Part shown: positions 189-58,325 of the stretch, piece by piece
Layout: each line of letters opens with the position of its first letter
How positions within the stretch are numbered: position 1 is the first letter of the stretch
Position numbers and translations under genes: made by a program
Notes under the pieces: generated by a model
What the model was told of the DNA's origin: nothing
The model's database searches: none
The model's input: the letters and a program-made list of their open reading frames with translations, nothing else
Origin: Schmidtea polychroa
Taxonomy: Eukaryota
Direction of reading: 5' to 3'
Length of the DNA stretch: 64,000 bases
Assembly: GCA_044892525.1 (NCBI GenBank)
Contig: CM097885.1
Span: 14,076,001 to 14,140,000, forward strand

Positions 189-817
189 CTACTGAAATGA
201 TTTACAACTCTTCAAGTATTCTGATGATAATTTCCCTGCTGTTTCCAATGCCTCGTACAGTCCATCACCGGAAACTGCACAACATGCCTGCAGGTGCCAT
301 TTGTGAGTGCGCTCCAGTTTCGATAATTCTAACCCTTCCACAATTCTACTTGGTGACATGGCATTTGGTAAATCTTGTTTGTTTGCAATCACCACTATTG
401 GAATCTGAATCAATGTTAAACATTTCAATTTCCTATGAAATCTAGATTTACATTTCTCATCTCGTCACATTCAGCAATCGTAAATAATTCATCTCTTGAT
501 TCCTTCAACCTTTCCACATCATTGCTGTCCACTACATAAATCAATCCATGACAATTCGTATAGTAATGTCTCCATAACTGTCGAATCTTTTCTTGACCTC
601 CCACATCCCAAATTGTGAATTTCAAACCTTTCCCAATTGAAACTTCCTCCACATTGAATCCGATTGTTGGAATCGTTGTCACAGTTTCATTGAGTTTCAA
701 TTTGTACAGAATTGTGGTTTTACCAGCAGCATCCAGTCCCAACATTAGGATTCTCCGAGGATCAGATTGAGACAACTCGTTTAGCAATTTGTATAATCTA
801 CTCAAAAGTATTCCCAT
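189..817 (-). CDS. ARF-family small GTPase (ARF/Arl4-11-14-like), apparently intact, 2 exons, 193 aa
   Basis: Exon 817-452 and exon 404-189 are joined by a 47-nt GT..CAG phase-0 intron (451-405). MG start (Gly2 myristoylation site); motifs [34 protein letters not shown] stop. Confidence 0.93.
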
Positions 818-2712: not shown

Positions 2713-4191
2713 GGTTGGGATGGGTATATTGATGTTTAAAAAGTAAAATATTCATAAATGCTTTTAAGTAAGAGTTACAAATCTATCAGTGACATTAGGA
2801 CGTAGAAACAACACACACGCCAGATTCTGAGTTGTTTGCCAACCGAAACTCTATTACTATCCAAACACCTGTAATTTTGACTTGAACAACCTTCTATTTC
2901 TGATATACCTAAAGAAATTCAGGCTCCAAAATATTATCTTGTACTCTTTCGAGTTAGGATCACCCTGGTTGTCTTATTATCTTATATTTTTCATATCTTC
3001 AAGATTTTAAGATAAATTTCGTTGTTTGTTAAAAAGTAAAATTCATTCATAAAATTTATCATATTTGTTAATTTAAATATATATTTTCTTAAAATCCTTT
3101 TTGTTTAAATAATATTGTATTTGAAAATTTTGCGAATGAAAAAGTGAATAAATTAATGAAATGTTACTTTATTTAATATTAAATCAGGTCACTAGCTCTT
3201 AAAAAGGATCTCAATACAAATGCAAATGGTGGGCGAAGCAATACAGAGTAACTATAGTATTATTATTATTATTATTATATTAACAATAATATTATTAGTA
3301 AATCAGACCCGAGACCTTTAAGAGATCCTAACCCAAATTTCATGAAAGATGCAAAACATAAATTATTTAAAGTAATCCATTTCATTATTAAAAGAAAGCA
3401 CCGATTACCCTAATCGAATCGACATCTCTAATTTTGGTAAACTTACCCAAACAGATGTGAAAGCAATTTTCGAACATTTTATCAGTATTGTTGTTCCGGA
3501 TTTTCGTTTAAATGCCTCACAAATAGCTGCCGAAGATCAAATTTTAAGGCACTAATCAATTTGATATAACACAATTTTAGTATTGCAATTAGGTTTTTTA
3601 CTGCCATTCAGTACAGCAATAATTTCTCCAAAACTCATTAAACATCACCGGCGATTTTCTCGTCAGTTCCACTCGTCATAGGAGCGTTTGATTTGTTGAG
3701 GCGATTTGTCAGCGCTTATATTCGGGTGAATTTTAATTTCATTTCAAATTTTGATTATTTTGATTATAATTATTATTCAAATTAATTTATATTAAATGTT
3801 TTTGATTTAATTATATAATTAATATTATTATGCTGTTGATATTGCAATTGGCAAGTTGCCGTGAGCGCTCCTTGATATAATTTTGATAAAAAGTATAATT
3901 TAAGAGCTTGAATAATGATCTCATATCTATATGGATCAATATTCAAGCCTTAAAGTTTACTTTAAATAAAAATAAATTACTCGAAAGCCATTGGCTAAAT
4001 TCAAAAAGTTAAAATATCTAAATAAAATAGCTAAGTTAAATTCCAAAAAAATTCTTCATAAAGAAGAAAGTTGGTTGTACATACAATTCACTCATCATTC
4101 ACTCCGCAATATAAAATAAAATTATGATATTACTACTTTTAAAAAATGATATGATATTAAAATAAAATAAACTAAGGCCAATATAACCAAT

Positions 4192-4650
4192 TTAATGCGA
4201 CTTTTGTGCCTGTTTTTTATTGGAAAGTAATTGGATATGAGGTTCGAGCTTAGTAACACGTAATTTGAGTTGGCCTTCCAAATGAACATCAGTTATCTGT
4301 GTCTTTAAATCGGTTTTAATTTGTGTTAGATATGAAAAAGTGGATTCGCAACAGTAAGTAGTTCCAAAGCAAGAAAGGGTATTCAGTTGCGTTTCCCCAT
4401 ATTTTCCCATAGGATTGTTCTTTAAATCAAAAAGGGATTTTTAATATTATCTTCACATAACTCAAACAATTCCATCTGTAGTTCGCTCGGCGCCTTTGCG
4501 ATATCAACTAGATGTCGTTCAAATGCTAATTTCATTTCAGAGTCAGAAAACCGTTCAGTATATTCTTCAATTAATGAGTCCACAACAGCAATATAGACAT
4601 CTTGAAATAGGAAAGTCTTTTTTTGGGAAAGTTGATTTTTCACATAAATC
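4192..4650 (-). mobile_element. hAT (Charlie/GTF2IRD2-like) transposase C-terminal remnant
   Basis: FGTTYCCESTFSYLTQIK..ITDVHLEGQLKL..KKQAQKSH, typical hAT dimerisation-domain C-terminus; frameshifted. Confidence 0.8.
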
Positions 4651-5639
4651 TAAAAATGGTGGAAAAATATTAAAATTTTTCTTTAAAAAGTGTATCACAA
4701 TTACAAATCATTATATCAATTCAAATATCAGTTATTATCAAAAATCTGATTAATTATTATTTATTTTACTAATATTTTGTTTTAAATCGTGCGCCAATTA
4801 TTCAGATAACACAATTAATATAATTACTCGGTTATGCAATTTTATATTAACAAGTATGCATTTTTATAGATTTAAAAAAAAATAAAAATTCGAAAAATAA
4901 ATAATAGATTAATAAATAGATTAATAAATAGATTAATAAATAGATTAATAAATTAAGTAAATTAATAAATAAATAGATTATTAAATTAATCACGATAATT
5001 AAGTACGATAACTCATCTATTTTTTATTTATTTATGATTTCATATTGATTTGCTTGAGATATTCCTATCGAATCGGTTTCCTAGGTACTCGGACACAATC
5101 AATCAGATCGAGGATTTCCAAGAGAAATTAGTGAGAAAGCGAGCGCAATTGCAGCAATCGAAATTGGAAATGGAAGAATTTAAACAAACGACCCGATCGA
5201 TGGAGCTCGAGATTGATGACGTGAAATTCCATTTGCAGAAAATATTTGCCGATGTTTATAATATTGTAATTGGTTTATTTGTATTTTTATTTATTATTTA
5301 CTTTACGGATGGAAATTTTGGCGCGATTTCATTGGCTCGCCACTTTGATTTTATTTTGCCGCATCCTAAATTCGATAATATTTGCCCTTAATCGATTATT
5401 TTTTATCAATATTTTACTGATTATTTCAATAATAATCTACATTTTATTAATTTTTTTATTGATTATTTTTTATCCATATTTTATTGATTCATTTTATCCA
5501 TATTTTTATTGATAACCTTTTCTAATTATTTATTAATATTTTTCATTTTTTAATAAACACTTATCAATTATTTTTATTAATAATTTCACTGATTATTTTT
5601 ATCAATATTTTATTAATTATTGAGCGATTGAGGAAATCG

Positions 5640-6430
5640 ATCGTAATCATCACTAGGAAATTATATTCGAATGGTCAGTGAAAGAATGGTAATGTCTAAT
5701 TGTAAAAGCAGGTTAGGAAGTGTAAACAATTGGTTAAAGTTGTCGGGATATCGGTGCAACTTTCAAATTGATGTGCTAAAGTTTACGAGTTATTTAAAAC
5801 GCAAAACAGTTTTGCATTGGAATGTTTAGAAGGGAATAATTAAAGTACGAAATAAAAAAGGATATTTTCTGTTGAATATGCAAAAAATGAATCCAATGAT
5901 GGCCTGAAAATGAAAGCATGAAGATATAAATGCGTTTTAAAGAATTATTTTGAAGAAAATCGAGTAGAATGCAGGAGGAAATTAAAATATACTCCAAATA
6001 AGGCCTGGTAAAGCAAAATTATTTACAATAAAAATAGGTTGAACATGAACAAGAGTTTAGAGATCAAATTCCTGTTAAATGCGAACACATGAAGGTTTTT
6101 AAATCAAATATACTGAAACATGAAAATATGGAGACAATAAATGTTTGGACAATGAAGCTTCAGAGTAGAACGGAAGAGAGAATATTTCAGCGTAATTATA
6201 ATGAAATTAAAACAATTCCGAGTAGATCAGATGAGATTGTGATGGGGAGGAATAGTTGGGGGACGAGTTCGAGAAATAAAATGTAAAGGATGGTAACAAC
6301 AATAATCGAAGGAGATGAAATATTGAGACAAAAGTAGAACTAGCAGAATCGACAAGTTAGAAACCAAAAAACTAAAAAGATAAACGGAAATTAAACTGGA
6401 GTAGCAGGAAGGACAATTCACCATATTATC
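5640..6430 (-). mobile_element. Highly degraded LINE (CR1/L2-like) RT C-terminal remnant in NDC80 intron; second copy about 55158-55948
   Basis: Fragments such as DLLGIV and TRPYLEY (compare LVRPHLEY) in broken frames. Confidence 0.35.
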
Positions 6431-8344
6431 CGATATTAATCCAATAAGTAGTTGTAATTCATACCTGAGAAAATGTGCCTGAATTCAGACAGCTAGTATT
6501 TACATCTGTATAAAATAGTAATATTACTATTCAAATATCATTTATTAAATCAATTTATTATATTAATATCGATTCAATTTGTTATATATTCATGAAATTA
6601 TATTTGTGCTAGAATTTATGTATTAACTTTTATGTTTTCATAATTTTTAATTATCCCCTTGACCTCTCCTGCTCTCCCTTCTTCCTGCAGTTGACAGCGG
6701 CCCCCGTTGAGAAATGATTTCAATAATCATTTATCTAAATCAGAATCGCGATAAATATGCGGAAAACTATTACTCTATATCTGATTACCTAAATTTTATA
6801 GAATCTGCAAGAATTGGAATATTATAAATTCTATATAAAATCAAATGATATGTTTGTCGCAACTAATGGCAAATTTATATCGGGATATCAATTAAAAACC
6901 CCAAAAATAATAATGTACTTACAATCATTTAAAAGATTTATTTACAAAACTTAATCTCTGCAATTAACCCAGTGGCGTCTTCATTTTAAAATTTCTCTTG
7001 TTAACCTTGTATTTGTATTTTCCCATTAAAATTTGACATGTAATTGCCTGTGAAATGATTAATTGTTCCAGTTAGGCCTTAATATTTCATCGTTTTTAAT
7101 AGCAACTGAATGCCGAGCAGAATTTCACAATTCATAACTGATCGAATTCAGCTTACAATTTATTCAATATAGATTATATAAGATTTATAGAGATTTCGAT
7201 AAGATTATTTTATGGCAAAATTCCACAATAATTTTATTCCATCGATAGCACATTTTAACTGCTTCCTTAGCATCACTTTCTCGCTAATCTTGGCTGTTAT
7301 TTGTATAATTTCATGTATTTTTCATACTTACATTTTATATAAAACTGACTTGATAACCAAATCCTCTCATCTTTTGTTATTATAATATTATAATGATTAT
7401 TGTATTATCATTTAATAATCAATATTTTATATGATATAAAATGTTTGGCAATAGCTATTGGAGCTAATATTAATTGTGGATGCTATAATGACAATAATGG
7501 CAAATGACCACCGTACTTTCAAAATAGACTTAGACTTTTTTTTACCTCTCATTTCAGTTCCCAGACTTAGTCAAAGAAGAAATTCGTCAAGAAATCACGG
7601 ATTTTAATTTCGAATATCTGCTAAATTACGATGGTTATTTGCGACCTTATATATCAAACTTGATATCTGTTATTGAAGAGAAGACCCAAATCAGGCGAGA
7701 GGAATTACAGGAACACATAAGACAAAGCGAAGATTTAAAAAGGAACGCTGAAGTTTTGGTATGGGTAAATTGATATAAACCGAAGTTATTTAGTTCATAG
7801 AAAAGTGATATAAAATTGTTGGAATTCGAGAATCGAATAGCTGTCAAGAATTTGAATGAAAATGAGACGATTTGCCTGACATTGTAGGAGGAATCTGCGG
7901 AACATTGTAAAGCCATTCAGAATTTAACGGATCAAGTTGGTCATCATCGCGATCTCAATGATTACATGGATCAGAAACTCGTCGAGATAAAGGTAGGGTT
8001 CAAGAATCAATAAGTCCTAAAGATGTAGAGATTTAGAAGCGATTCGAGGAAGAGAAAAGTACATTTCAGGAAGCAAGTCAATTCTATGAAGTTGATATTG
8101 ATTTGAAGCAAGATTGTGCTGACATTCGACTGCAAAGCCTCCAGGAAAGTCATGATTTTAGAGAATCAGTAATGAAATGGAATACGGCATTATTTGAAGG
8201 AGAAAAAGAAAATAGTAAATCATTTGAAGCTGGCCTAGAAAAGCGCAAAAGAGAACTGATGAAACATTTTACCAAGGAACTTGCAGTAATCGATGAAAAG
8301 TTTAAATTTTGATCTTGTTATTGATGTTACTTTGTTATAATACA

Positions 8345-8917
8345 CAGTGCTCGAAGTGAGGCGGGATAGCCGGGATATTATCCCGGCATTGATTATGTAG
8401 GCGGAATTGCATCCCGGCACTACATTTCATATAATCTATAGGTTTATCCCGGTACTTATTTCATTTTATAGGCACACAAATACTGCAATTAAGGTCACAC
8501 ATAGTACATCCATATATGTATGTATATATATATATTCTTTATTCTCTATTCTCTATTCAATTAAGAATTTCCCAAGCAGCAGTAATGGATAGGTAGGTAT
8601 ATTCTCTTATTTATTTTAGTTAAACCAGCAAGTTGTTTGTTGAGTTATTTATACTGCGACCCCCTCTATATATAATGTGTGCATGATTTCACATGCAGAG
8701 AGCTGTTATAATTAACGTGATAAGAAAACATATATGTGCTACGCAGATATACATACACATGCACATATTGACAATCACAATATGTAAGAGATATGTAAGA
8801 TAGGACCACCCAAAGTTTTGCAACACCCCCAACTGAAAATTTCTGCATAAAAGCCTGGAATCCCGGGTGCCAAAGCATGCCTATCCCGGCACATATTTTG
8901 TTCCACTTCGAGCACTG
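8345..8917. mobile_element. hAT-family MITE, 573 bp
   Basis: 14-bp TIR CAGTGCTCGAAGTG; 8-bp TSD ATAATACA/ATAGTACA; empty site at about 57853-57860; second copy at 61632-62104. Confidence 0.9.
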
Positions 8918-9540
8918 ATAGTACATGTTTCTATTTTTGTTTTTTTTATCATTTACTGAAGCCTTTTTTAATTTATTCACTCAGATTTATTTACAATCTT
9001 TTTAATTAAAAATTATATATAAAATGCTTATTTAGGTGGTTAATAGTGAGTAATTTAATGAGATCATGATGTAAATGTTTTTGAAATAAAAACGTGCTGC
9101 TATCTAGTCAAAATTTGTATAAAAGAAAAGCTGGTAAACAAAATAATATAATAAAAGTTTTTTACATAAAATTCTTAATTTTCCATTTTAAATATATCAT
9201 TAATAAACTACTGATAAATTGTCAATATTATATATTGATTTTATTATATAAGATTTTAGTGGCAAATAAACATTTAGAGTTAGATATGTACACAACCACA
9301 ATAAGATAACGATTGCATATCGTAATTATAAATAAAAAGTTACAAGTAATAATTTAACACCACACTACGTCGATATTTGAATTCAGAGGGTTAGATTTAC
9401 TATAGAAACCCTCTAAGAGTAATATAACTATTTTTTGTTGTGTTGTGTAATAATAAAAATAATAATATTAATTACATCGGATGAAAGAGGAGAATGACAA
9501 TAATTATTACTATTAATCTAATGTAATAAAATAATAAGGC

Positions 9541-13996: not shown

Positions 13997-14625
13997 CTAC
14001 TGAAATGATTTACAACTCTTCAAGTATTCTGATGATAATTTCCCTGTTGCTTCCAATGCCTCGTACAGTCCATCACCGGAAACTGCACAACATGCCTGCA
14101 GGTGCCATTTGTGAGTGCGCTCCAGTTTCGATAATTCTAACTCTTCCACAATTCTACTTGGTGACATGGCATTTGGTAAATCTTGTTTGTTTGCAATCAC
14201 CACTATTGGAATCTGAATCAATGTTAAACATTTCGATTTCCTATCAAATCTAGATTTACATTTCTCATCTCGTCACATTCAGCAATCGTAAATAATTCAT
14301 CTCTTGATTCCTTCAACCTTTCCACATCATTCCTGTCCACTACATAAATCAATCCATGGCAATTTGTATAGTAATGTCTCCATAACTGTCGAATCTTCTC
14401 TTGACCTCCCACATCCCAAATTGTGAATTTCAAACCTTTCCCAATTGAAACTTCCTCCACATTGAATCCGATTGTTGGAATCGTTGTCACAGTTTCATTG
14501 AGTTTCAATTTGTATAGAATTGTGGTTTTACCAGCAGCATCCAATCCCAACATTAGGATTCTCCTTGGATCAGATTGAGACAACTCGTTTAGCAAATTGT
14601 ATAATATAATCAAAAGTATTCCGAT
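13997..14625 (-). pseudogene. ARF-family GTPase copy 2, start codon lost
   Basis: Colinear with copy 1 (629 nt, intron 14259-14213), but ATG is ATC at 14625-14623 with an in-frame TAA just upstream; VVDSN is changed to VVDRN. Confidence 0.85.
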
Positions 14626-16729: not shown

Positions 16730-19700
16730 ATGAAAAAGTGAATAAATTAATGAAATGATACATTATTTAATATTAAATCAGGTCACTAGTTCCTATAAAG
16801 GATCTCAATACAAATGCAAATGGGGGGCAAAGCAATACAGAGTAACTATAGTATTATTATTATTATTATATTAACAATAATATTATTAGTAAATCAGACC
16901 CGAGACCTTTAAGAGATCCAAATTTCATGAAAGATGCAAAACATAAATTATTTAAAGTAATCCATTTCATTATTAAAAGAATTCGTAACAGAATTTTATA
17001 GTTTCTAGAAAGCACCGATTACCCTCATCGAATCGACAGCTCTAATTTTGGTAAACTTACCCAAACAGATGTGAAAGCAATTTTCGAACATTTTATCAGT
17101 ATTGTTGTTGCGGATTTTCGTTTAAATGACTCACAAATAGCTGCCGAAGATCAAATTTTACGGCACAAATCAATTTGATATAACACAATTTTAGTATTGC
17201 AATTAGCTGCATTTTACTGCCATTCAGTACAGCAATAATTTCTCCACAACTCATATAACATCAGCGGCGGCTTTCCCGTCAGTTCCACTCGTCATAGGAG
17301 CGTTTGATTTGTTGAGGCGATTTGTCAGCGCTTTTATTCGGGTGAATTTTAATTTCATTTCAAATTTTGATTATTTTGATTATAATTATTATTCAAATTA
17401 ATTTATATTAAATGTTTTTGATTTAATTATATAATTAATATTATTATGCTGTTGATATTGCAATTGGCAAGTTGCCGTGAGCGCTCCGCCACATAGAGCA
17501 GTTACAAATGCAAATCAAACTAATCTATCAGTTATTAATCTATCAAAGGAATTATCACAATAGTTATCTCACATAATAATTCAATAAATCAAATCAATAA
17601 TAATAAGGCAAATCAAAACCCAAAATAAATCAATTTTTATTGAAATCTTTTTTAATTTGTCATAATTTTTCAATTCTGCACCTGAGCAGCAATTTACCAC
17701 TTTTGAATCGAGCGAATGATTTTTGATGGGTGCAAGCATTTCTTTTTCATCTCATCAATTTGCTGTTGACATTTTGATTCAATCTGCCGAATTTCATTGG
17801 CGCATTTCACCATTTCAAGCTGCAGCTGAATCTCAAATTCAAACATTTAAATAAATCAATAATTCACCTTTTCATTCCCCTGTTGCAGCCGCTGCTCGCA
17901 TTTCTCTTTCATCTCATCAATTTGCTGTTGACATTTAGATTCAATCGCCTCAATTTGCTGCCTGACCTGCTTTGCATTAATAATAAATCAAATCAATAAT
18001 CAAACTTGATTGATTGATCCAATATTTGTCTCCATCTCCATTCTCAATGAGCGATTCTCATTCTTCAATGCCACCATTTCCTCATTCAATTCTTCTATTG
18101 ATAATTGATAATTTTTATTGATAATTTCATTACGCAATGTCACATTCTCGTCTCTCATTGCTTGCATCTCATTGCATAGATTACTGATCTGATCGATCAA
18201 TAATTTGCTATGGCCTTCATTATTCTCATTGAGATGGACTTTCATTTCGTCCTTATCCACCTCATTCATTTCGCATCCAATTCTATTGAATGGACATTTT
18301 ATTGGTTGCTTGTTGCATGTTCTCATGTGGCTTTCCATCACCTCTAATTCATCTTTGAATTGACAATTTTGCATTGGGCATCTCACTATCACTTCTGAAA
18401 TCCTTAAATTGGCTGCATGATCTTCAGAAACATCTTTATTGAAATTTATCATTTTCTTTCCACAATGTTTTCCTGCTCCTGGACAGAATTTATCTTTTCC
18501 ATCCAAATAATGTTCAATGCAATCAGAACAAAAGCGACAACCGCAAGGAGCTTGGCAAGCTTTTATCATTAAACACTTGCAAATTCTGCATATCAATTCA
18601 TTGCTGATTTCATTATCAAATTCAAATTTATTCCTCTTCATTATTTCCCATACACTTGCAAACATTTTATCTAAAATTAACAAAATTATAAAAATATTTC
18701 AACATTTTACAACATTCATAAATCATACTTATTATATTAATTATTTCCTCTGACGTTGACAATTTCAATATTTATAATTTGTATTTTGATGTAGATAAAC
18801 AAACATTTTATAAATATTGTATTTTAGCTTGAAATATTGTTAATGCTAATTTTTAGTGTTTTTCTCATTTATTTTAAATTTTACAAAATTATTTAAATTA
18901 TAATTTTATAACGAAATGTAAAATTTTAACATTTTTAACGGCAAACACAAATTAAAAATATATCAAAATATAAAATTAGATATTTTTCATAAAATATTAA
19001 AATATTGATCTAATGATTTCGTTATGGTTACACATATTTGTCTCACATTTTCTGATGTGTACAAGTTTCCTGTGAGCCCCATATTGACATTGTCACATTT
19101 TATTGTGCACAAAGCAATACTGATAAATTGGATTAGATTTAACACAATAAAAATTAAATTTTAACGAATTTTTGTATGATTTAATGAAATCTGTGATCGG
19201 TGCAGGGCCTAATTGACACGTAATTTTAATTGATTCTATCCATTGCAGTTCACTGTCCTGGTGCATGTAATGGTGGATGTGCTGGGGAATGTGCTGGGGA
19301 ATGTGCTGGGGAATGTGATGGATATATCTGCCTTTTCAATTTATTATTAATGCTAATGATAATAAATAATAATAATAATTTTAAATGACCCCGCTAAATT
19401 CAGACCGATCCTAAAATGCTTTTCCCGAGAATTATGAGTTATCGTATCTGCTCAGAAGTCGTTTTGGATTCTTTGATTTCCATTTACCGGACAATTGAAA
19501 ACGCTGAATTCAACGCTAATAATCTAATTGAACTTCAGGATGCCATTCGATACGAAATGGGAATCATATCAAGCAGTGAAATCATGAAAATCTCTCAGAA
19601 TGTCGACCAAATCGAAGAGATGCAAACGAATGTTCAACTCCTTGAATGCACTATCAGAGAAATCCGAGGAATCCAATCGAATTGACAATTGCATTGAGAC

Positions 19701-19887
19701 CGAGGATGGAAAGCATTCAAAATTGAAAGTGAAATCAGGTTGGTGGAATCCTGTACGTGATGAATCATTTATAGGAAATCCTTCACAAGCTGCAAATGGA
19801 AATCCGAGATGAAACCAATTGCTCAAATGCTATTACGAAAGAGAATTCACTCCTAGTTGCCAAGAGGAGTGAATACGAGGAGAAAGG
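16730..19887 (+). pseudogene. NDC80: NDC80 broken copy 2 (N-terminal and CH exons 16730-17341; middle exons 19404-19738 and 19775-19887; 3' exons absent)
   Basis: ATG at 16730; donor at 17342 and CAG acceptor at 19403 are in phase. Exon TDPKMLF..VLDSLISIY..ELQDAI resembles HEC1 LFLDYTIKCY..ELQSKL. Apparent frameshifts near 17207 and 19670-19740. Confidence 0.78.
17694..18665 (-). CDS. TRAF-like protein copy A: RING + zinc fingers + coiled coil, MATH domain deleted (about 295-300 aa; may be a pseudogene)
   Basis: ATG 18665; exons 18665-18006, 17969-17868, 17831-17694 with about 36-nt GT-AG introns. RING CRIC..CGCRFCSDC..CPG; TRAF ZnF CPMQNC..H..C. Frameshifted tail ends at TAA 17696-17694; remnant KLLLRCRIEKL* lies in another frame. 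Confidence 0.8.
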
Positions 19888-30762: not shown

Positions 30763-31158
30763 TAATTATATCAGGAAAATTCAATTTTATTATGACAATT
30801 CAATTTTATTTGTCTGTGTCGAAAATGTATTATTCCATTCATATGGTGGTAGTGTGACAATTCAATTTTAGATAATTTGTGATCAAATATGTGACTTAAT
30901 TATTTTTTATTTATTTTATGGATTTATATTTTATGGTGTAAATAATTGTTCATCTTTTATTTTTACGACTTATCATTTTATTTCATACATAAAATCTTAA
31001 CTACATAATTTAGGATCGGAATTTCTTTATTAATGATATTACATTAGTGGCCAAGGACCAAATGTGAAGCAGTTCAGAGTATATTGCGTAATTCAATACA
31101 ATGTATTAGTTATTACGCAATATACATTACTATTTACAATATACATTACAATATACAT

Positions 31159-31790
31159 TATTGATCTAATGATCTCGTTATGGTTACAAATATTTGTTTG
31201 ACATTTTCTAATGTGTACAAGTTTCCTGTGAGCCCCATATTGACATTTTCACATTTTATTGTGACAAAGGTGCAATTATAAAATGTCAAATGTACAAAGC
31301 AATACTGATAAATTGGATTAGATATAACACAATAAAAACTAATTTGTAGCGGATTTTTGTATGATTTTATGAAATCTTTGATCGGTGCAGGGCCTAATTG
31401 ACACGTAATTTTAATTGATTCTATCCAATCGTATTGCAGTTCACTGTGCTACTGCATGTGATGGTGAATGTGATGGATATATATACCCTGTTTGCACTCA
31501 ATAAACGCACCTATAATATAAATAATAATAAATTAATTATTAAATAGATTAATAAATAAATTGATAAATAGATTAATGAATAAATAAATTATTAAATAAA
31601 TTAATAAATGGATTAATTAATAAATAAATTAATAAATAGACAAATAAATTAATTAATTTATAAATAAATAGATTCTCTCTCTGCTTTCGCCTTTCAAGCG
31701 CATTTCCTCTTGCTTTATTTATATTATCCAAATTGCTTTCGATTTTTTTAATTCTTGTAGAATTGCAAAACTTATCTGGCAGCTAATTCA
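31159..31790. repeat. Fourth partial copy of the TRAF-upstream/NDC80 intron region
   Basis: 31159-31485 matches 19005-19330 and 53137-53465; 31710-31790 matches 54138-54230; exons absent. Confidence 0.8.
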
Positions 31791-33571: not shown

Positions 33572-36500
33572 ATTTTACCTATTGGGTCATATAAGGGAGA
33601 TCCAGAAAAGTTCGACGATTTTTTTCACTGAGATTTCTCAGTATGTAGAGGCTTGTGGTTGGACACTTGATGAATTGAAAACAAGAATCCCCTTATATGT
33701 GAAGTAATCGAAATAATGATAGAGATAATGGAAATAATCGTTTTAGAGATATATACTCGTTTTGGTAGATATATACTCGAGATGATAGGAACAGTCGTTT
33801 CGAAAATAATAGATATAACCATCCGGAATATAACAGAAAGGATTTAAGAAACAGGCGAATGAGCTCATATAGACAAAATGAGTATAGAGAGAGGCGACTA
33901 AGCCCGTATAACAATGATAGTAGAGAAAAAGTATATTTACAAGGAAAAATCAAATGTTATAATTGCGAGAGATATGGCCACTTAGCGAAAACATGTTATA
34001 AACCGCGAGAAAAATCGCCAATCAGAGTAAATATTAAAGAGGAACTAGATATAAAACAGGTAAATAGTGCTGAATTGGTAGCAGCTATTAATGAGATAAA
34101 TATGTTCAGAGAAGAGTTAAAAGAGTTCAAGACTCTATGTTGTAGACTTATTGAGAAAATACTTGAGGTATCAATAAATGAATTAGAAATTTTTACAAAT
34201 GAAGTATTTATTGATGATGATGGATTTAGAAGAGCCCAAGAGGCCGATAACAAATTTTTAACAAGGATAACAGATAAAGACTGTTTCGAGAAAATTTGAT
34301 AAATGCACTAATCTGCTTGATCCATTATATAAAATCAGTGATGATATGTGGATTACGATGTCCGACAGAAAAGAAGCAACAAAGCTGCATAAACTAGAAT
34401 TAATTGAACTAGAGAAAAAACTAGAATTTATGGAAGTCAACGAAATGGACAATAATGGCATGTATACAAGAGAAGACATAGAAAGTGCCAGAAAACACAT
34501 GTTAATTCCTTATGAAAAAGAAAAAAATAATAAAAAAAAATCAATCATAGTAAATAAAGTAATCGAATGTAGTCATGGGGGAAGCTGCAATTTTGATGTA
34601 TTATTGTCAAAGGAACATTTTAAAAATGTGGTATACCGAGTATTGAAAATGATTTGCTCGTAATTAATGTCATTAAAACAGCTCAGACAAGTGTTTGGAA
34701 ATTCGTACAAGCTAATAGCATGTTTTTGCCCATTCATAGCCAAATATTTAATAACAACAAAACATGACAAAGAGATCCGATTAATAAAAAGACGAAGAGA
34801 AGACGAGCAGCAGATAATGATCATAGAAAAAGATGAAGAGAACCCGGAAGAATCGGAACAACAGCCAAGCAGAGGCATATACGATAATCAAAGAGATTTA
34901 TGAAAAGAAATGGAAAATTATAATGCCAAAACTAAGCAAAAGTTGTCATGGTGTACCCAGAAAAATATACGGGTGCTATGGTTTGGAACTTTGCATGAAT
35001 GACATATGGGGATCAGCAAATGAAGCAAGACCATTACTTCAAATAACAATAAATAATATAAGCATACACGCTCTAGTTGATACAGGAGCAGCAGCATCAT
35101 TGATAAGAGAGGATCAATTAACAGAGAATCAAATGAAAAATATTGTAACCACAAGAGAAAGAGTGGTATCATTGTCAGCACACGATATTCCATTAAAAGG
35201 AAACATTGAACTGACAGTCCATTTGGCAAGTCAAACAATAAATCATATATTTAAAGTCGCTGAGGAGTGCAAAAGCATGTGTGTTCTTGGAATGGATCTA
35301 CTTAATAAACTAGATAAGTTTGTGATAGATTTAACAGATAGTACAGTTAAAAGGAAAGTGTTAGTTTACTTATGCAATTAAAGAAAAATGATATGGGGAT
35401 ATTGAGTAGATAAAAGTTGTAGAGGGCAACAGAGTCTCCGCAAAAATACCTGTTTGGGACAGTTGGCATGCGTGTATGTTATGAATAAGTAGAGTATACA
35501 GCTAGATATCAATTATAATATAAAAAGAAAATAAACGCGAACAATAACTCCAGCTTTTATTAAAAAGAAAATAATTAGTCAACCTTGTTTTTGTGAAAAC
35601 GGGAAATTAAATCTTTTGCTTTTCGGATATATCTTCGAATAGTGAATAATAGTGAATAATGGTAGTGAATAATTGTATTTTTCTTTCGAGTAAATCTTCG
35701 TAAATATATCTTTGAATAATTTCAATTCGGTATATCTTCGAATAGTTTTTTATTGATCTTTTTATTTGTTTCCATTTTCTATTGCTATATAGTTTATTTT
35801 TTTTAAAAAAAGATAAAAAAAGAGTTTTCCACGTGCAACGCACAGAATTGTTACTTACATTGAACCAGAACAACCAACAATTAAAATAAAATATAACAAT
35901 ACATTACAGAACTTCCCCCTTTAAAACCGGAGGTTAACATTTAAACGGCTTTACATATTTACAAAAAAATTAAAAATATGTTGTTGGAATTTGTGATGGT
36001 TTAGTTGTGTTTTTGTTTTGTGTTTTACAACTAAAAAAATTATAAAAATTGTACAACTAAATCTTGATCACGCAGTTCTGCTGGTACTATAATTCTTTTG
36101 TTGTTGTCGTTTGAAGTGTCGTACCATATGCCGTCTATTTCTTCCAATTGGAGTGAATTCAACCTTTTTTTTCAGATTTTCTTTTGCCTGTTTAAAGCTG
36201 TTATTAGTTTTTCGTTCCAATTTATTTTGATGATTCTCTTTATTTTGTTCAATTTGTTGAGAGGGGCTAGCATTTCGCTACATTTTGGTACGTATTTGTG
36301 ATAGAAGTTGATCATGCCAAGGAAACGTCTTAGCTCTTTTGTTGTTTTGGGTAACGGATAGTTTTTGATTGCTTTGATTTTGTCGTCTAATGGTTTTATT
36401 CCGTTTTCGTTTAACAGATCTCCCAAAAATTTATTTCTCTTTTCAAAAATTCACATTTTTTTATGTTAATTTTTAGTTTATATTTGTTTAATATTTCGAA

Positions 36501-39500
36501 CACATTTTTAATGTTTTGTAAATGTTCTGTTTTGTTTGCTGATGCTATCAAGATGTCGTCTAGATGTGCGACTGTGTTTTGTTGATTTCGAAATATTTGG
36601 TCCATAAAGCGTTGGAAAGGGGCTGCTGCGTTTTTTAATCCAAAAGGCATTTTGTTATATTCGAAAAGTCCTATGGGTATGATGATTGCAGTTTTATTTG
36701 TGTCTTCCGTTCTGACAAGAATTTGATGACAGGCTTTTTCTAAGTCTATTTTGCTGAAAGTTTTGGGTTTGTTTAATCTGTTAATGATGTCGTTTATTAT
36801 TGGAATTGGGTATTTATCGGTTGTTGTGATATTCTTTAATACTCTGTAGTCTCCACAGGCTCGCCATTCGCCGTTTGCATTTTCTTTGCGCATGAGAGCT
36901 GATGACCAGTTTGAGTTTGAGTGTTTGACGATTTGGTTTTCTAGTAGTTCGTCGAATATTTTCTTAGGTATTTCGAGTTTATTTTTGTCTAATTTTCTGA
37001 CTTTTGCATGGACTGGGTTTCCGTTGCTAATTATTATGTGTTCGGTTATGCATTTTTTGTTATTGTTTGCCTCTAGTTTATTAGTTATATTTGGTACATT
37101 TTGTATTAGTTTTGCGATTTCATTAGGTATATGCCAGTTTGTTTCTGTTTTAATTGTTTTTGTTTTACCGTGTTGGGCTGTTATTACTCCGATGTCACAA
37201 TTGATTTGTTTCTTGGATTGTTTATTTTGGTTGTATATGTTGCTTAAATTGTTTGGTAAGACTTTTCCATTCTTGCAGTCGACTAGTAGATCGAAGTTTG
37301 AGAGGAAATCTGCTCTTAAAATGGATTGTTTGACTTCAGCGATAGTGAATTGCAAATTGTATTGTGTGTTGTTGATGATGATTTTAATGTTTTGTTTCCC
37401 GAACGTTTTGATTGGGCTGCGTTTGCTGCACACAAATTCGAGGTTTCTGTTTTGTATTTTTATACAAGTAATTCGGAACAATGAAATTATTGAGCCTGAA
37501 TCAACGAGAAAGTTAAGGCCATTGCTATGCACTGTGAAAGTTTGGCTGTCACCAATTGTCGGTGCTATCATTGGTGACTTTATATGTTTCCCGACTCTTC
37601 TTTGTCGAAGGTGCAGGGTTTGTTGCATTTATATGCTTTATTCCCAAATTTATTGTGGTAGTAACAATAGTTTTGGTTTGTGCATTTATTAGGGTTGTTC
37701 CATGTTTTGTTTTTGTCCAAGCTGTTGCGGCTGCCTGATCTTGTATTTTGTGTTGGATAATTTTGCCTGTTTTCATAACATTGTGTTCTCCTGGATACTC
37801 TTCTTTGTAATTCGGTAATGTCTTTTCTTAGACTTTTGTTTTCGATAATTATTTCGTCAAAATTTTGTTACCAAAGTTGAGAGGAGTTTGTTCCTTTCTG
37901 TAGTTTCTGAGCTATTGTGTACCGGGATGTTTTGTTCATTATTTTTGGAATAATTTTTGTTTTGGTATGTTCTACATATTGTCGGGTATATTTTGGCGTT
38001 GATTTTGTCTGCTATGTTTGCCAGGGTTTCGAGGTCTGTGCAGTTGCTGACAGCTAGAATCCGGCATATTTCAGGTAGGTCTTTGATAATCTCTTTTGAC
38101 CCGGTGCTTGTTATTTTAATTTGTCAGTATTCGAGTTTTGTTTTTAAATTTCGCAGGAATTCAGACGGTTTGACGTTACCCAATTGTATATCTTTCAAAC
38201 ATGATTCAAGTAGTTCTCGTTTGTTTATTTTGTTCCTATTTATTAGGGCATTGTATAAGTTTTCGAAAGGGTTGTCATCCATTGATATTTACTCTATTCT
38301 ATCGGCTATTTCGTTGAGGATGTTGCTTGGAAAGGCGGCAATTATGTGAGAGCAAACTGTTTTTGATGATTTGATGCCTGATATACTAAATGTTAGTTTG
38401 GCGAATTCTGCCATTTTGGTGATGTTCCATTTTTGTCTGTAACGAAATTTGAGATGGACGCCTTAGGAATTGTTACTTACATTGAACCAAAACAACCAAC
38501 AAATAAAATAAAATATAACAATACATTACAGAAAGCAAACCACCGTAATGCAAAATTTTCAGAGGTAAAATTCTTGGAAGCTTTTGAGCTAGAATACAAA
38601 TGCGATCATATAGTTCCTGTAAAAGTTAATGTCAAAAGTGAGAACACTTTTATTTTTGAGCCAGATACAGCAATCACAAAAAATCACAATGCAATGCTAA
38701 TAGACGAGTATGTAATCCCGATACGAATTGCAAATTATGAAAATAATAATATAAAAATACATAAAGGTACTAAACTAGGAAAGCTATTTAAAGGAAAAGC
38801 AGAACAAATTATTGAAATAAGTGAGATGTTAATAACAGAGAATACGAGTGAAAACGTTGTCGAACTGGGTCAACCAAATAACATAAAATTCTACGATAAA
38901 GTAAAAATTGATAATAAATATTTAAATGAAAATCAACAATCACAATTACAAACCTTAATTGATGAATATAACGATGTTTTCGCTAAACATGAATTTGATT
39001 TAGGAGATACCGACATCATTAAACACATGATAGATACAGGTAATGCTAGATCTATAAAACAAAGACCCTATGGAGTACCTTATAAATTGAGGAAGGAAAT
39101 AAAACGAAAAATTAAAGAACTAAATATGCAGGCATAATTAAACAAAGTTTTCACAGTGGGCATCACCAATAGTACCAGTTAGAAAAAAAGATGGAGAAAT
39201 AAGAATGTACATTGACTATTGTAAACTAAATGACGTAACAGTAAAAGACTCATACCCATTCCCAAAAGCACAAGAACAATACGATAAATTAAGAGACTCT
39301 AAATATTTTTCAGTCATTGATGCAAATAAGGGTTATATGCAAATCCAAATGGAGGAAGGGATGCGGAAAAAACAGCTTTTGTCATTGAAGACGACCTATT
39401 TGAGTATACAAGATTACCTTTTGCGTTAACCAATTCACCAGCAACCTTCCAGTGTTTATTGAAAACAATATTAGTAGATGTACAACATTGCGCAATTTAG

Positions 39501-40350
39501 ATGTACGTTATACTAATATCATCAAAAACATTTGAGGAACATTTAAAAGACATTACAAACGTATTACAGCAATAAGGAAAGGCAAAGATAAAAATTAAAT
39601 CAACTAAATGTAAATGGGCGAGCCCTCAGCGTTATTTTTGGGACATATTGTTAGTGTGGAGGGCATAACACCAAACCCAGATCAAATTAAAGCTGTGAAA
39701 AAGTTTCCAGTCGCAAAAACATTACAACAAGTGCAAGGATTTTTAGGTTTAACAGGGTACTATCGTAAATTTTTACAAGACTATGAAATTAGCAGCGCCG
39801 ATGATAGAATTAACAAAAGGAATAAAAACCAAGGGAGAAAGTAAAAATGTATTAATAGTACAAAGTAATAACGATAAAATCAATAAACCACAAAAGAAAT
39901 GGACAGCAAAACATCAAGAAGCTTTTGATCAACTAAAAGAAAAATTAGTAACTGCACCAATATTAAGATACCCAGACAATTTATAGTTATGACGGACGCC
40001 AGCGGGAAGGCCGTAGGGGCAGGTTTAGGACAAGAAGAAGAAAAAGGTAAAGATTATGTAATAGCTTATGCAAGTAAAACATTAAAAGGTGCACAGTTAA
40101 GATATTCAACTATAGAAAAGGAATGTTATGCCATAGTTTTTGCGCTAAAACAATTTAGGCCATACATATATGCAACATTGGTAGTTATTAAAACAGACCA
40201 TACACCATTAGAAGGGATATGGAAGCATAAGGATACATCAAGTAGATTATTGAAATGCACAATGAAGAATCAAGACATGCATATTAAAATTATATATAAA
40301 CCCGGAAGGATTAACAGAAATGCGGACGCATTATCAAGAATCCCTGAGTT
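33572..40350 (+). mobile_element. Ty3/Gypsy retrotransposon remnant (gag, protease, RT, RNase H); no LTRs or integrase; interrupted by a second element
   Basis: Zinc knuckle CYNCERYGHLAKTC; protease ALVDTGA; RT WASPIVPVRKKDG, IDYCKLN, FALTNSPATFQ; RNase H TDAS, YSTIEKECYAI, NADALSR; many frameshifts. Confidence 0.92.
35418..38530 (-). mobile_element. Nested Ty3/Gypsy element: truncated 5' LTR (38530-38468), gag, protease, RT, PPT, 3' LTR (35908-35418); integrase deleted
   Basis: FLVDSGS protease; CGDYRVL, FSKIDL, MPFGLKNA, HLDDILI RT; PPT AAAGGGGGAAG next to TGTAATG LTR start; TGTA..TACA ends; 63-bp LTR match on the right. TSD not clearly identified. Confidence 0.88.
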
Positions 40351-40569
40351 AGGAGTATTAGGATTCTCATCCGTTACAACAATAATATCTTTTTGCAAAT
40401 CACTAAATAATTCCATAAATTTTATTCAATAAATTTTTCTCTCAAAAACCTGTCTTTCTTAGTTTTATTATTAAACAAATTTCAATTTTCCTTTTAAAAT
40501 ATTTTTCGATAAAAATATTTTTTTTAAATTTAACAAAATTTCTAATTAAATCTTTAAGAATCTATCAAC

Positions 40570-44896: not shown

Positions 44897-45514
44897 CTAC
44901 CGAAATGATTTACAATTCTTCAAGTATTCTGATGATAATTTCCCTGCTGCTTCCAATGCCTCGTACAGTCCATCACCAGAAACTGCACAACATGCCTGCA
45001 GGTGCCAATTGTGAGTGCGCTCCAGTTTCGATAATTCTAACCCTTCCACAATTCTACTTGGTGACATGGCATTTGGTAAATCTTGTTAGTTTGCAATCAC
45101 CACTATTGGAATCTGAATCAATGTTAAACATTTCAATTTCCTATCAAATCTAGATTTACATTTCTCATCTCGTCACATTCAGCAATCGTAAATAATTCAT
45201 CTCTTCATTCCTTCAACCTTTCCACATCATTGCTGTCCACTACATAAATCAATCCATGACAATTCGTATAGTAATGTCTCCATAACTGTCGAATCTTCTC
45301 TTGACCTCCCACATCCCAAATTGTGAATTTCAAACCTTTCCCAATTGAGATTTCCTCCACATTGAATGCGATTGTTGGAATCGTTGTCACAGTTTCATTG
45401 AGTTTCAATTTGTATAGAATTGTGGTTTTACCAGCAGCATCCAATCCCAACATTAGGATTCTCCTTGGATCAGATTGAGACAACTCGTTTAGCAATTTGT
45501 ATAATCTACTCAAA
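44897..45514 (-). pseudogene. ARF-family GTPase copy 3
   Basis: 88-bp deletion (TCAAA microhomology) removes ATG, 5' UTR and TATA; TCA to TGA nonsense at 45207-45205; IGFN changed to IAFN; intron 45159-45113 retained. Confidence 0.92.
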
Positions 45515-45641
45515 TTCTCCACCGTGGATTGAATGACAACGCGTTTCTAAAAACAGTAATAGAAATTTCAATATTTTCTGATTGGTCATTTAGAATAATT
45601 AATGCCATTCTATCAAAGACTTAAAAAATAGATTGATAACG

Positions 45642-50361: not shown

Positions 50362-51322
50362 TGTTGGCACGGGTATATTGATGATAACATAGTAAAATAT
50401 TCATAAATGCTTTTAAGTAAGAGTTGATTACAAATCTATCAGCGACTCTAGGATATGGAAACAACACACATTCCAGATTCTGAGTTAACTGCCAACAGAA
50501 ACTCTATTAATATCCAAAAATCTGTAATCTTGACTTGAACAACCTTTTACTTCGGATGAACCTAACGAAATTCAGGTTCCAAAATATTTTCTTGTACTCT
50601 TTCGAGATCCACCTGGTTGTCTTATTATCTTATATTTTTCATATCTTCAGGATTTCAAGATAAATTTCGTTGTTTGTTAAAAAGTAAAATTCATTCATAA
50701 AATTTATCATATTTGTGAATTTAAATATAAATTTTCATGAAATCTTATTTGTTTAAATAATATTGTATTTGAAAATTTTGCGAATGAAAAAGTGAATAAA
50801 TTAATGAAATGTTACTTTATTTAATATTAAATCAGGTCACTAGCTCTTAAAAAGGATCTCAATACAACTGCAAATGGTGGGCGAAGCAATACAGAGTAAC
50901 TATAGTATTATTATTATTATTATATTAACAATAATATTATTAGTAAATCAGACCCGAGACCTTTAAGAGATCCAAATTTCATGAAAGATGCAAAGCATAA
51001 ATTATTCAAAGTAATTCATTTCATTATTAAAAGAATTCGTAACAGAATTTTATAGTTTCTAGAAAGCACCGATTACCCTCATCGAATCGACAGCTCTAAT
51101 TTTGGTAAACTTACCCAAACAGATGTGAAAGCAATTTTCGAACATTTTATCAGTATTGTTGTTCCGGATTTTCGTTTAAATGCCTCACAAATAGCTGCCG
51201 AAGATCAAATTTGATGATGATGATGATGACCACAATAATAATCTCATATAATAAATATAATAGAAAAAGGCAAACAGTAAAACAAATCAAAACCCAAAAT
51301 AAATCAATTTTTCTTTAATTTG

Positions 51323-52806
51323 TCATAATTTTTCGATTCTGCGCCTGAGCAGCAATTTATCACTTTTGTCTGCTAATTGATAGATTGATCTGTCATCACC
51401 AATAGAATAATAACTGGCAATTGGATTATTTTTGTCATCTAACGGTTTCCCCCATCCGACATCATCAAACCAACCTGAATATTTTATTGACTTGCTCATA
51501 TAAATGCTGCCATTTGCTGGATCGATCACATCGATTGTCACGGATTGTTTGAACGGCCAATCCAATTGCTCATCATTTGCCCCACGCATCAAACAGAAAC
51601 CAGCAAACACCCAATCATCCCCAATGCTCACCCACAAGCACATTTTGTAACCGATTGGCCCCGAATAAAATGTGTCGCTGTAAATATCTTCTCTTCTCTT
51701 TTGTTGTGAAAATTTATCGATTTGCCATTCAAAAAATCCATAATTTCTATATTTTTCATTCCCTTGTCGCTCGCATTTCTCTTTCATCTCATCAATTTCC
51801 TGTTGACATTTTGATTCAATCTGCCGAATTTCATTGGCGCATTTCGCCATTTTAAGCTGCAACTGAATCTCAAATTCAAACATTTCAATAAATCACCTTT
51901 TTATTCCCCTGCTGAAGCCGCTGCTCGCATTTCTTTTTCATCGCATCAATTTGCTGTTGGCATTTTGATTCAATCTGCCGTATTTCATTGGCGCATTTCG
52001 CCATTTCAAGCAGCAACTGAATCTTAAATTCAAACATTTCAATAAATCAATAAATCACCTTGTCATTCTTCTGTTGCAGCCGCTGCTCGCATTTCTCTTT
52101 CATCTCATCAATTTGCTGTTGACATTTTGATTCAATCACATCAATTTGCTGTCTGATCTGCTTTGCATCAATAATAAATCAAATCAATAATCAAACTTGA
52201 TTGATTGATCCAATATTTGTCTCCCTCTCCATTCTCAGTGAGCGATTCTCATTCTTCAATGCCACCATTTCCTCATTCAATTCTTCTATTTCTCCTCTGT
52301 TCTCCGCCTCTTTCTTTTCTATATTGCACAATTTCACCTACAATCACAGATATCAATTAAATTAATTACAAATACAATTTTACAATTTCGTTTTTATCCA
52401 CCTCATTCATTTCGCATCCAATTCTATTGAATGGACATTTTATTGGTTGCTTGTTGCATGTTCTCATGTGGCTCTCCATCACCTCTAATTCATCTTTGAA
52501 TTGACAATTTTGCATTGGGCATCTCACTATCACTTCTGAAATCCTTAAATTGGCTGCATGATCTTCAGAAACATCTTTATTGAAATTTATCATTTTCTTT
52601 CCACAATGTTTTGCTGCTCCTGGACAGAATTTCTCTTTTCCATCCAAATAATGTTCAATGCAATCAGAACAAAAGCCACAACCGCAAGGAGCTTGGCAAG
52701 CTTTTATCATTAAACATTTGCAAATTCTGCATATCAATTCATTGCTGATTTCATTATCAAATTCAAATTTATTCCGCCTCATCATTTCCCATACGTTTCC
52801 AAACAT
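51323..52806 (-). CDS. TRAF-family protein copy B: RING, zinc finger, coiled coil, MATH/TRAF-C (about 440 aa)
   Basis: ATG 52806; exons 52806-52384, 52337-52197, 52160-52059, 52022-51897, about 51862-51323, with all introns phase 0 GT-AG. MATH motifs FEWQIDKF, FYSGPIGYKMCL, LMRGANDEQLDWPF. Confidence 0.88.
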
Positions 52807-54521: not shown

Positions 54522-57500
54522 AGGAAATTAGGTCCACAAAATCAAGCACGATAACTCATCTATTTTTTATTTATTTATGATTTCATATTGATTTGCTTGA
54601 GATATTCCTATCGACTCGGTTTCCTAGGTACTCGGACACAATCAATCAGATCGAGGATTTCCAAGAGAAATTAGTGAGAAAGCGAGCGCAATTGCAGCAA
54701 TCAAAATTGGAAATGGAAGAATTTAAACAAACGACCCGATCGATGGAGCTCGAGATTGATGACGTGAAATTCCATTTGCAGAAAATATTTGCCGATGTTT
54801 ATAATATTGTAATTGGTTTATTTGTATTTTTATTTATTATTTACGTTACGGATGGAAATTTTGGCGCGATTTCATTGGCTCGCCACTTTGATTTTATTTT
54901 GCCGCATCCTAAATTCGATAATATTTGCCCTTAATCGATTATTTTTTATCAATATTTTATTGATTATTTCAATAATAATCTACATTTTATTAATTTTTTT
55001 ATTGATTATTTTTTATCCATATTTTATTGATAACCTTTTCTAATTATTTATTAATATTTTTCATTTTTTAATAAACACTTATCAATTATTTTTATTAATA
55101 ATTTCACTGATTATTTTTATCAATATTTTATTAATTATTGAGCGATTGAGGAAATCGATCGTAATCATCACTAGGAAATTATATTCGAATGGTCAGTGAA
55201 AGAATGGTAATGTCTAATTGTAAAAGCAGGTTAGGAAGTGTAAACAATTGGTTAAAGTTGTCGGGATATCGGTGCAACTTTCAAATTGATGTGCTAAAGT
55301 TTACGAGTTATTTAAAACGCAAAACAGTTTTGCATTGGAATGTTTAGAAGGGAATAATTAAAGTACGAAATAAAAAAGGATATTTTCTGTTGAATATGCA
55401 AAAAATGAATCCAATGATGGCCTGAAAATGAAAGCGTGAAGATATAAATGCGTTATAAAGAATTATTTTGAAGAAAATCGAGTAGAATGCAGGAGGAAAT
55501 TAAAATATACTCCAAATAAGGCCTGGTAAAGCAAAATTATTTACAATAAAAATAGGTTGAACATGAACAAGAGCTTAGAGATCAAATTCCTGTTAAATGC
55601 GAACACATGAAGGTTTTTAAATCAAATATACTGAAACATGAAAATATGGAGACAATAAATGTTTGGACAATGAAGCTTCAGAGTAGAACGGAAGAGAGAA
55701 TATTTCAGCGTAATTATAATGAAATTAAAACAATTCCGAGTAGATCAGATGGGATTGTGATGGGGAGGAATAGTTGGGGGACGAGTTCGAGAAATAAAAT
55801 GTAAAGGATGGTAACAACAATAATCGAAGGAGATGAAATATTGAGACAAAAGTAGAACTAGCAGAATCGACAAGTTAGAAACCAAAAAACTAAAAAGATA
55901 AACGGAAATTAAACTGGAGTAGCAGGAAGGACAATTCACCATATTATCCGATATTAATCCAATAAGTAGTTGTAATTCATACCTGAGAAAATGTGCCTGA
56001 ATTCAGACAGCTAGTATTTACATCTGTATAAAATAGTAATATTACTATTTAAATATCATTTATTAAATCAATTTATTATATTAATATCGATTCAATTTGT
56101 TATATATTCATGAAATTATATTTGTGCTAGAATTTATGTATTAACTTTTATGTTTTCATAATTTTTAATTATCCCCTTGACCTCTCCTGCTCTCCCTTCT
56201 TCCTGCAGTTGACAGCGGCCCCTGTTGAGAAATGATTTCATTAATCATTTATCTAAATCAGAATCGCGATAAATATGCGGAAAACTATTACTCTATATCT
56301 GATTACCTAAATTTTATAGAATCTGCAAGAATTGGAATATTATAAATTCTATATAAAATCAAATGATATGTTTGTCGCAACTAATGGCAAATTTATATCG
56401 GGATATCAATTAAAAACCCCAAAAATAATAATGTACTTACAATCATTTAAAAGATTTATTTACAAAACTTAATCTCTGCAATTAACCCAGTGGCGTCTTC
56501 ATTTTAAAATTTCTCTTGTTAACCTTGTATTTGTATTTTCCCATTAAAATTTGACATGTAATTGCCTGTGAAATGATTAATTGTTCCAGTTAGGCCTTAA
56601 TATTTCATCGTTTTTAATAGCAACTGAATGCCGAGCAGAATTTCACAATTCATAACTGATCGAATTCAGCTTACAATTTATTCAATATAGATTATATAAG
56701 ATTTATAGAGATTTCGATAAGATTATTTTATGGCAAAATTCCACAATAATTTTATTCCATCGATAGCACATTTTAACTGCTTCCTTAGCATCACTTTCTC
56801 GCTAATCTTGGCTGTTATTTGTATAATTTCATGTATTTTTCATACTTACATTTTATATAAAACTGACTTGATAACCAAATCCTCTCATCTTTTGTTATTA
56901 TAATATTATAATGATTATTGTATTATCATTTAATAATCAATATTTTATATGATATAAAATGTTTGGCAATAGCTATTGGAGCTAATATTAATTGTGGATG
57001 CTATAATGACAATAATGGCAAATGACCACCGTACTTTCAATAGACTTGGACTTTTTTTTACCTCTCATTTCAGTTCCAAGGCTTAGTCAAAGAAGAAATT
57101 CGTCAAGAAATCACGGATTTTAATTTCGAATATCTGCTAAATTACGATGGTCATTTGCGACCTTATATATCAAACTTGATATCTGTTATTGAAGAGAAGA
57201 CCCAAATCAGGCGAGAGGAATTACAGGAACACATAAGACAAAGCGAAGATTTAAAAAGGAACGCTGAAGTTTTGGTATGGGTTAATTGATATAAACCGAA
57301 GTTATTTAGTTCATAGAAAAGTGATATAAAATTGTTGGAATTCGAGAATCGAATAGCTGTCAAGAATTTGAATGAAAATGAGACGATTTGCCTGACATTG
57401 CAGGAGGAATCTGCGGAACATTGTAAAGCCATTCAGAATTTAACGGATCAAGTTGGTCATCATCGCGATCTCAATGATTACATGGATCAGAAACTCGTCG

Positions 57501-58325
57501 AGATAAAGGTAGGGTTCAAGAATCAATAAGTCCTAAAGATGTAGAGATTTAGAAGCGATTCGAGGAAGAGAAAAGTACATTTCAGGAAGCAAGTCAATTC
57601 TATGAAGTTGATATTGATTTGAAGCAAGATTGTGCTGACATTCGACTGCAAAGCCTCCAGGAAAGTCATGATTTTAGAGAATCAGTAATGAAAGGGAATA
57701 CGGCATTATTTGAAGGAGAAAAAGAAAATAGTAAATCATTTGAAGCTGGCCTAGAAAAGCGCAAAAGAGAACTGATGAAACATTTTACCAAGGAACTTGC
57801 AGTAATAGATGAAAAGTTTAAATTTTGATCTTGTTATTGATGTTACTTTGTTATAATACATGTTTTTATTTTTGTTATTTTATCATTTACTGAAGCCTTT
57901 TTTAATTTATTAACTCAGATTCATTTACAATTTTTTTAATTAAAAATTATATATAAAATTTTTATTTAGGTGGTTAATAGTGAGTAATTTAATGAGATCA
58001 TGATGTAAATGTTTTAGAAATAAAAACGTGATGCTATCAGTCAAAATTTGTATAAAAGTAAAGCTGGTAAACAAAATAATATAATAAGTTTTTTACATAA
58101 AATTCTTAATTTTCTATTTTAAATATATCATTAATAAACTACTGATAAATTGTCAATATTATATATTGATTTTATTATATAAGAATTTATAGTGGCAAAT
58201 AAACATTTAGAGTTAGATATGTACACAGCCACAATAAGATAACGATTGCATAATTTAACACCACACTTCGTCGATATTTGAATTCAGAGGGTCAGATTTA
58301 CTATAGAAACGCTCTAAGAGTAATA

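Follow-up and report, generated by a model that had tools for sequence, protein, structure and literature searches.

How did a TRAF gene come to lie on the opposite strand inside an intron of NDC80, and does this arrangement couple immunity to cell division, as an earlier note on this DNA had proposed in suggesting that the guest could be co-regulated with cell division or mutually exclusive to it? The DNA analysed (hereafter the window) is a 64-kb stretch, C1:14076001-14140000, of an AT-rich genome of 781 Mb, and it contains three diverged units, each built from an Arf-like gene, NDC80 and TRAF (Table 1). The Arf-family GTPase frames that head the units are on the minus strand, at window positions 425-817, 14224-14625 and 45205-45546 (Pfam Arf E 3e-46). 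Units 2 and 3 (C1:14.09-14.14 Mb) recur about 172 kb upstream, at C1:13.90-13.97 Mb, where the unit 2 TRAF still has its MATH exon. Also present in the window are a solo piece of the TRAF upstream region without TRAF coding sequence (31147-31476) and broken frames at 33769-41743 and 58596-60220, which we take to resemble retrotransposon gag/pol and hAT-like and pogo-like transposases.

Table 1. Features of the three units and of the complete NDC80 copy. Positions are those of the window unless given on C1.
Feature	Position	Strand	Remarks
NDC80 duplicate, unit 1	2820..9196	+	exons 1-5 and 8-11 present; exons 6-7 and TRAF lost by deletion
NDC80 duplicate exons 1-5 (N-tail and CH domain), unit 2	16730..17341	+	from Pfam, alleles and gene model
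NDC80 intron 4, unit 2	17163-17206	+	44 nt, GC donor
NDC80 intron 5, unit 2	17342..19403	+	2062 nt, GT-AG, phase 0
TRAF cassette, unit 2	17560..19005	-	approximate span homologous to TRAF copies without NDC80 flank
TRAF A coding region, unit 2	17694..18665	-	RING, zinc finger, coiled coil; MATH deleted; 297-aa model, two introns
TRAF 5′ UTR intron, unit 2	18671..18728	-	58 nt; joint 18670-18729 in an X2 contig, possibly of paralogue origin
NDC80 exons 6-7, unit 2	19404..19887	+	46-nt intron 6 at 19729-19774; frame broken by a 2-nt deletion near 19662
NDC80 5′ exons, unit 3	50473..51212	+	cut inside exon 4; host-intron donor deleted
TRAF B, unit 3	51323..52806	-	full 443-aa RING-ZF-CC-MATH model
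NDC80 exons 8-11, unit 3	54540..58127	+	acceptor and exons 6-7 deleted upstream
Complete NDC80 copy (L059), about 100 kb from the window	C1:14194621-14203119		gene model

The host is recognizable as NDC80 by its N-terminal CH domain (PF03801), which was matched at window 16885-17145 with 30.1 bits against a cut-off of 25.1. All five PDB matches of the paralogous CH stretch were to NDC80/HEC1, each of them weak (E 0.34-0.96). The C-terminal exons gave no NDC80 Pfam match, and a search for relatives in the protein database returned nothing usable, the three matches among the representatives being unrelated repeat proteins.

In unit 2, the host intron begins with GT at 17342, ends with AG at 19403 and is in phase 0 (R/T); TRAF A and its 5′ UTR intron are contained wholly within this single intron on the opposite strand. 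Contigs from three of four runs (X1, X2 and X3, from two studies) join 17340 to 19403, skipping 2062 nt with GT..AG ends, and they also splice neighbouring small introns; the contigs of runs X1-X5 are unstranded, and that they derive from RNA is a guess. At 20 diagnostic positions the joined contigs carry the letters of the copy at C1:14.198-14.203 Mb in 17 cases and those of the window copy in none, and the splicing of the host intron is therefore established for this paralogue, not for the window copy. The earlier note was thus right that an in-phase NDC80 donor and acceptor bracket an antisense TRAF A, and the host exons are indeed joined in RNA-like contigs of X1-X3, in paralogue alleles. 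X5 is without the host-intron joint, and its coverage, mainly at TRAF 3′ ends, says nothing on expression. Among the joints listed, none crosses TRAF A's own deletion junctions. Within the host intron, a short Cys/Gly-rich tandem motif is found behind an acceptor-like site (window 19250-19330); the DNA around it has 37 matches, nearly all within TRAF clusters.

Both partners of unit 2 are damaged. Relative to the complete NDC80 copy, the host has two extra nt in exon 5 (17210-17211), a changed base immediately preceding the GC donor of intron 4, a 2-nt deletion in the exons downstream of TRAF (Table 1) and no exons 8-11. The frame is not restored by removing any GT-AG segment as long as the CH domain is to be kept. 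Rescue by frameshifting was rejected, as stops occur in all three frames, and the alternative splice routes considered for the frameshift allele all either depend on poor intron ends (GC or AT-AC) or interrupt the CH domain. TRAF A, in which zf-TRAF (E 5e-5) and zf-C3HC4 (E 0.002) both score under the Pfam cut-off, has lost the MATH domain as well as 98 nt around an intron. With its host frameshifted and its guest devoid of MATH, unit 2 is a dead end, and a full-length NDC80 open frame is absent from the window altogether.

TRAF B retains its MATH domain (E 1e-13), which is homologous to the MATH/TRAF-C domain of vertebrate TRAF2/3/5 (PDB 1ca4 and 1kzz, E 1.6e-9); unlike in those proteins, MATH is hypervariable here, and TRAF A is without it. 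The placement of TRAF B at the same site in unit 3, also put forward in the earlier note, stands as far as homologous position is concerned, but the unit 3 host intron has neither donor nor acceptor. As the note had said, the window offers no empty site: unit 1, which was considered as one, was rejected, TRAF being absent there by deletion. No empty pre-insertion intron came to light.

The question whether TRAF entered before or after NDC80 was inactivated can be addressed with the only copy found with all exons, L059. Its NDC80 model has 572 aa and 10 introns, nine GT-AG and one GC-AG, and it too carries a TRAF in intron 5, which is 3949 nt long there. The nesting is therefore older than the breakage of the duplicates, and the condition under which the note would have taken it for a secondary insertion into a dead copy, a parental intron without TRAF, does not apply. 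That is, as regards the duplicates, TRAF was in place before NDC80 was inactivated. The guest of the complete NDC80 has a stop at codon 159 and more frame damage at MATH, so that in this assembly it is broken as well. Hence the breakage is reciprocal: the complete NDC80 holds a stopped TRAF, whereas full-length TRAFs stand beside partial NDC80, and none of the 29 modelled copies has both partners intact at one locus. This weakens the idea of co-regulation or mutual exclusion with cell division.

The structure of the intron bears on how TRAF arrived. Among older copies, the introns are homologous only over about 50 nt at the donor and about 40 nt at the acceptor, and the ancestral intron was therefore probably short. 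Homology to TRAFs without an NDC80 flank stops about 340 nt upstream of the ATG. The nested TRAFs retain 3-5 introns of their own, so that the guest is no retrocopy and differs from the intronless gene expected of retroelement cargo.

The window units belong to a large family of copies on C1. Of 63 candidates for the CH-domain exon, 58 are matches, 57 of them on C1. Of these C1 exon-4 matches, 42 lie at most 3.5 kb from an opposite-strand TRAF, tail-to-tail; the pairing, which gives at least 42 pairs, used the 92 TRAF matches on C1 0-17 Mb out of 150 listed. The TRAF family itself has 1094 candidates genome-wide, of which 150 were scored, and 50 of the 92 top matches on C1 0-17 Mb are without a paired NDC80 exon. 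The pairs cluster at about 2.1-5.8, 9.3, 13.9-14.2 and 15.5-16.7 Mb, in both orientations and with variable ends, and the copies differ by 3-20% and have private deletions. The exon that follows the host intron is present at only nine places and a C-terminal NDC80 exon at 10. Downstream of NDC80 exon 6 in one older duplicate (L049:6916-7840) there are broken frames with motifs that, presumably, recall a rolling-circle Rep and helicase.

From this family 45 TRAF copies were extracted, 29 of them NDC80-flanked. Beside their broken NDC80, 21 of the 29 model full length (422-474 aa, with their C-terminus in the last MATH strand), a recount from the models where an automatic classifier gave 15 of 29; the other eight are not full length, some perhaps because of model failure. 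Flanked and unflanked TRAFs are mixed across the tree (seven changes, at least four of them forced), and monophyly of the flanked TRAFs was rejected (AU p 3e-59, with L083, a near-copy of L063, relabelled as flanked). The unflanked TRAFs may either have lost their flank or have been mixed in by gene conversion, a choice that the root of the tree, one long branch, leaves undecided.

Selection was compared among 16 of the 21 full-length flanked TRAFs, three near-duplicates and two doubtful models being left out. Pairwise dN/dS was 0.25 in RING/ZF, 0.40 in the coiled coil and 1.45 in MATH. Likelihood estimates of omega were about 0.25 for RING and about 2 for MATH (lnL -2060.1 free vs -2069.2 at omega 1; 2dlnL 18.2), although with a MATH dS as low as 0.08 gene conversion may inflate the latter value. 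Columns with four or more residues numbered 18 of 126 in MATH and 8 of 130 in RING; in the MATH exon (window 51323-51750 and paralogues) the hypervariability is concentrated in a few strands and loops. The NDC80 duplicate lineages had pN/pS of 1.07 and 0.99, with tips at 0.92 and 0.99 (287 codons). For the lineage of the complete copy pN/pS was 0.44 over the same number of codons, from nine nonsynonymous and five synonymous changes, which is not significant (p 0.13; Fisher p 0.29). Judged by these substitution patterns, the TRAF RING is conserved, MATH appears to diversify and the NDC80 duplicates drift.

The explanation that we consider probable is that TRAF became nested antisense in NDC80 intron 5, likely by one landing at the DNA level, and that dozens of copies of the pair were made afterwards, in each of which selection likely kept only one partner. 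In this scenario, a TRAF duplicate would have inserted as DNA into a short NDC80 intron, and the pair would then have spread along C1 by repeated segmental duplication. The TRAF copies would have been selected as a repertoire of diversifying adaptors, with the NDC80 pieces as hitchhiking passengers in neutral decay, and the guest would have been lost from the single copy in which NDC80 is indispensable. Relief of antisense interference could explain why no copy keeps both genes. We infer the single insertion, the role of TRAF as the selected cargo and the relief of interference. Because the NDC80-flanked TRAFs do not form one clade, flanks must have been lost or gene conversion must have occurred if the insertion was single. 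Reciprocal loss would also be expected from dosage and neutral decay alone. Interference between nested partners is documented in PMC5174743, and PMC12274878 reports co-expression of opposite-strand nested pairs too. It is likely that the nesting arose by accident in evolution and is being undone as the pair duplicates, and that it is no switch between immunity and cell division.

One alternative has to be weighed against this scenario: all nested copies, the 572-aa one included, could be NDC80 pseudogenes, with the working NDC80 unassembled or diverged beyond recognition and TRAF having entered a copy that was already dispensable. The full-length frame of L059, with its long coiled coil, requires splicing of introns 4 and 6, a weak GC-AG intron and an intron of 46 nt, and neither was seen spliced in the contigs examined. 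Every NDC80-like contig that covers these two introns, which flank the TRAF-bearing intron 5, retains them: the 44-nt, stop-bearing intron 4 (L059:8640-8683) is retained in contigs of X1, X2, X3 and X4 and intron 6 (L059:4185-4230) in contigs of X1-X3. Moreover, the NDC80-like RNA allele has a frame-breaking 2-nt insertion, so that these contigs cannot encode full NDC80, and at several sites its base is the older one, the complete copy being derived there. Furthermore, a 500-N gap (C1:14233681-14234180), about 30 kb from the complete copy, interrupts a near-identical NDC80 duplicate. Beside this gap, the 31-kb block C1:14234181-14265171 is 99.95% identical to 14202686-14233680, which likely reflects an assembly overlap or a very young duplication.

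Against this, the 572 codons of the complete copy contain no stop or frameshift, whereas older duplicates bear several. No other NDC80 was found in the genome by searches that would miss diverged, intron-split genes: eight of 11 PF03801 candidates passed, all within the cluster on C1, and a ninth is another copy of the family. The one off-cluster PF03801 candidate, on C2 next to another TRAF, was rejected as intergenic noise. Of the kinetochore partners of NDC80 (Nuf2, Spc24 and Spc25), only a weak Nuf2-like exon was found, at L099:1471-1671 (C1:58.45 Mb; Pfam E 5e-4, under the cut-off). No productive NDC80 mRNA was seen among the NDC80-like contigs, but contigs drop rarer isoforms. Intron retention is described as common in planarian stem cells (PMC4978528) and as an effect of nested genes (PMC3192792). 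Taken together, we regard it as unlikely that every copy is a pseudogene.

A regulatory account would read the same pieces differently. The NDC80 promoter, expected to be active in dividing cells, would drive antisense transcription through the TRAF copies and silence them in stem cells, and the 5′ half of NDC80 would travel along for this reason. The 5′ exons do adjoin the paired TRAFs while the 3′ exons are mostly gone, some older duplicates are transcribed, judging from X1 contigs with indels typical of them, and the dominant NDC80-like RNA is spliced but non-coding. However, the 5′ exons are merely those nearest to the TRAF 3′ end, the NDC80 pieces evolve neutrally, the TRAFs without a paired exon are numerous and scattered through the tree, and the contigs give neither strand nor cell type. 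Such a role for the promoter is therefore, in our judgement, quite improbable. We are just as doubtful of its wider form, in which a branch of the TRAF expansion originated within NDC80 and every copy carried the NDC80 promoter away with it as an antisense brake, keeping dozens of fast-diversifying adaptors off in dividing stem cells; if true, the silencer would be a spliced non-coding RNA derived from NDC80 that is also the worm's main NDC80-like transcript. That assembly error created the repeated units, or that the splice sites are motifs arising by chance, is scarcely credible and is refuted for the family as a whole by the divergence and private deletions among copies and by the host-intron joint in contigs from two studies, and could hold at most for the 31-kb block beside the gap.

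The single landing followed by duplication has parallels in known systems. In the RCCX module of the human MHC, an immune gene has been multiplied by segmental duplication, truncated neighbours have been dragged along and gene conversion has occurred among copies. RCCX consists of a few tandem modules with adjacent or overlapping genes, whereas in the present case it is the host of a nested gene that travels as passenger, and the copies are dispersed and number in the dozens. Opposite-strand nested genes as described in Drosophila (PMC5174743) and C. elegans (PMC12274878) share with our case a short young duplicate in a host intron on the opposite strand; as compared with those accounts, the host-guest pair here was amplified more than 40 times, with at most one partner kept per copy examined. 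The planarian TRAF/MATH expansion (PMC6109357, PMC7586133) likewise comprises RING-ZF-coiled coil-MATH TRAFs in very large numbers, and from this match with the very large family seen here we take the genome, tentatively, to be that of a freshwater planarian; in the passages that deal with it, these papers count transcripts, with neither a genomic origin nor a link to NDC80. Each of the three elements is thus already known by itself: genes nested in introns, fragments that hitchhike in duplicated modules, and the TRAF expansion. No account of all three together at this scale was found in the literature as far as it was searched, where supplementary gene tables could hold these loci.

By itself, the locus is not evidence that immunity and mitosis are linked. 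For practical work, RNAi or probes directed to NDC80 or to any of these TRAFs would hit dozens of loci by cross-reaction, and miscalls are to be expected in the annotation of the units. The locus is a clear natural case of a nested pair parted by duplication and reciprocal loss. At least 42 TRAF copies bear NDC80 fragments as a birthmark, by which part of a known but unexplained expansion can be traced to its origin, and if the unflanked copies have lost their flank, the nested TRAF would be the founder of a larger subfamily.
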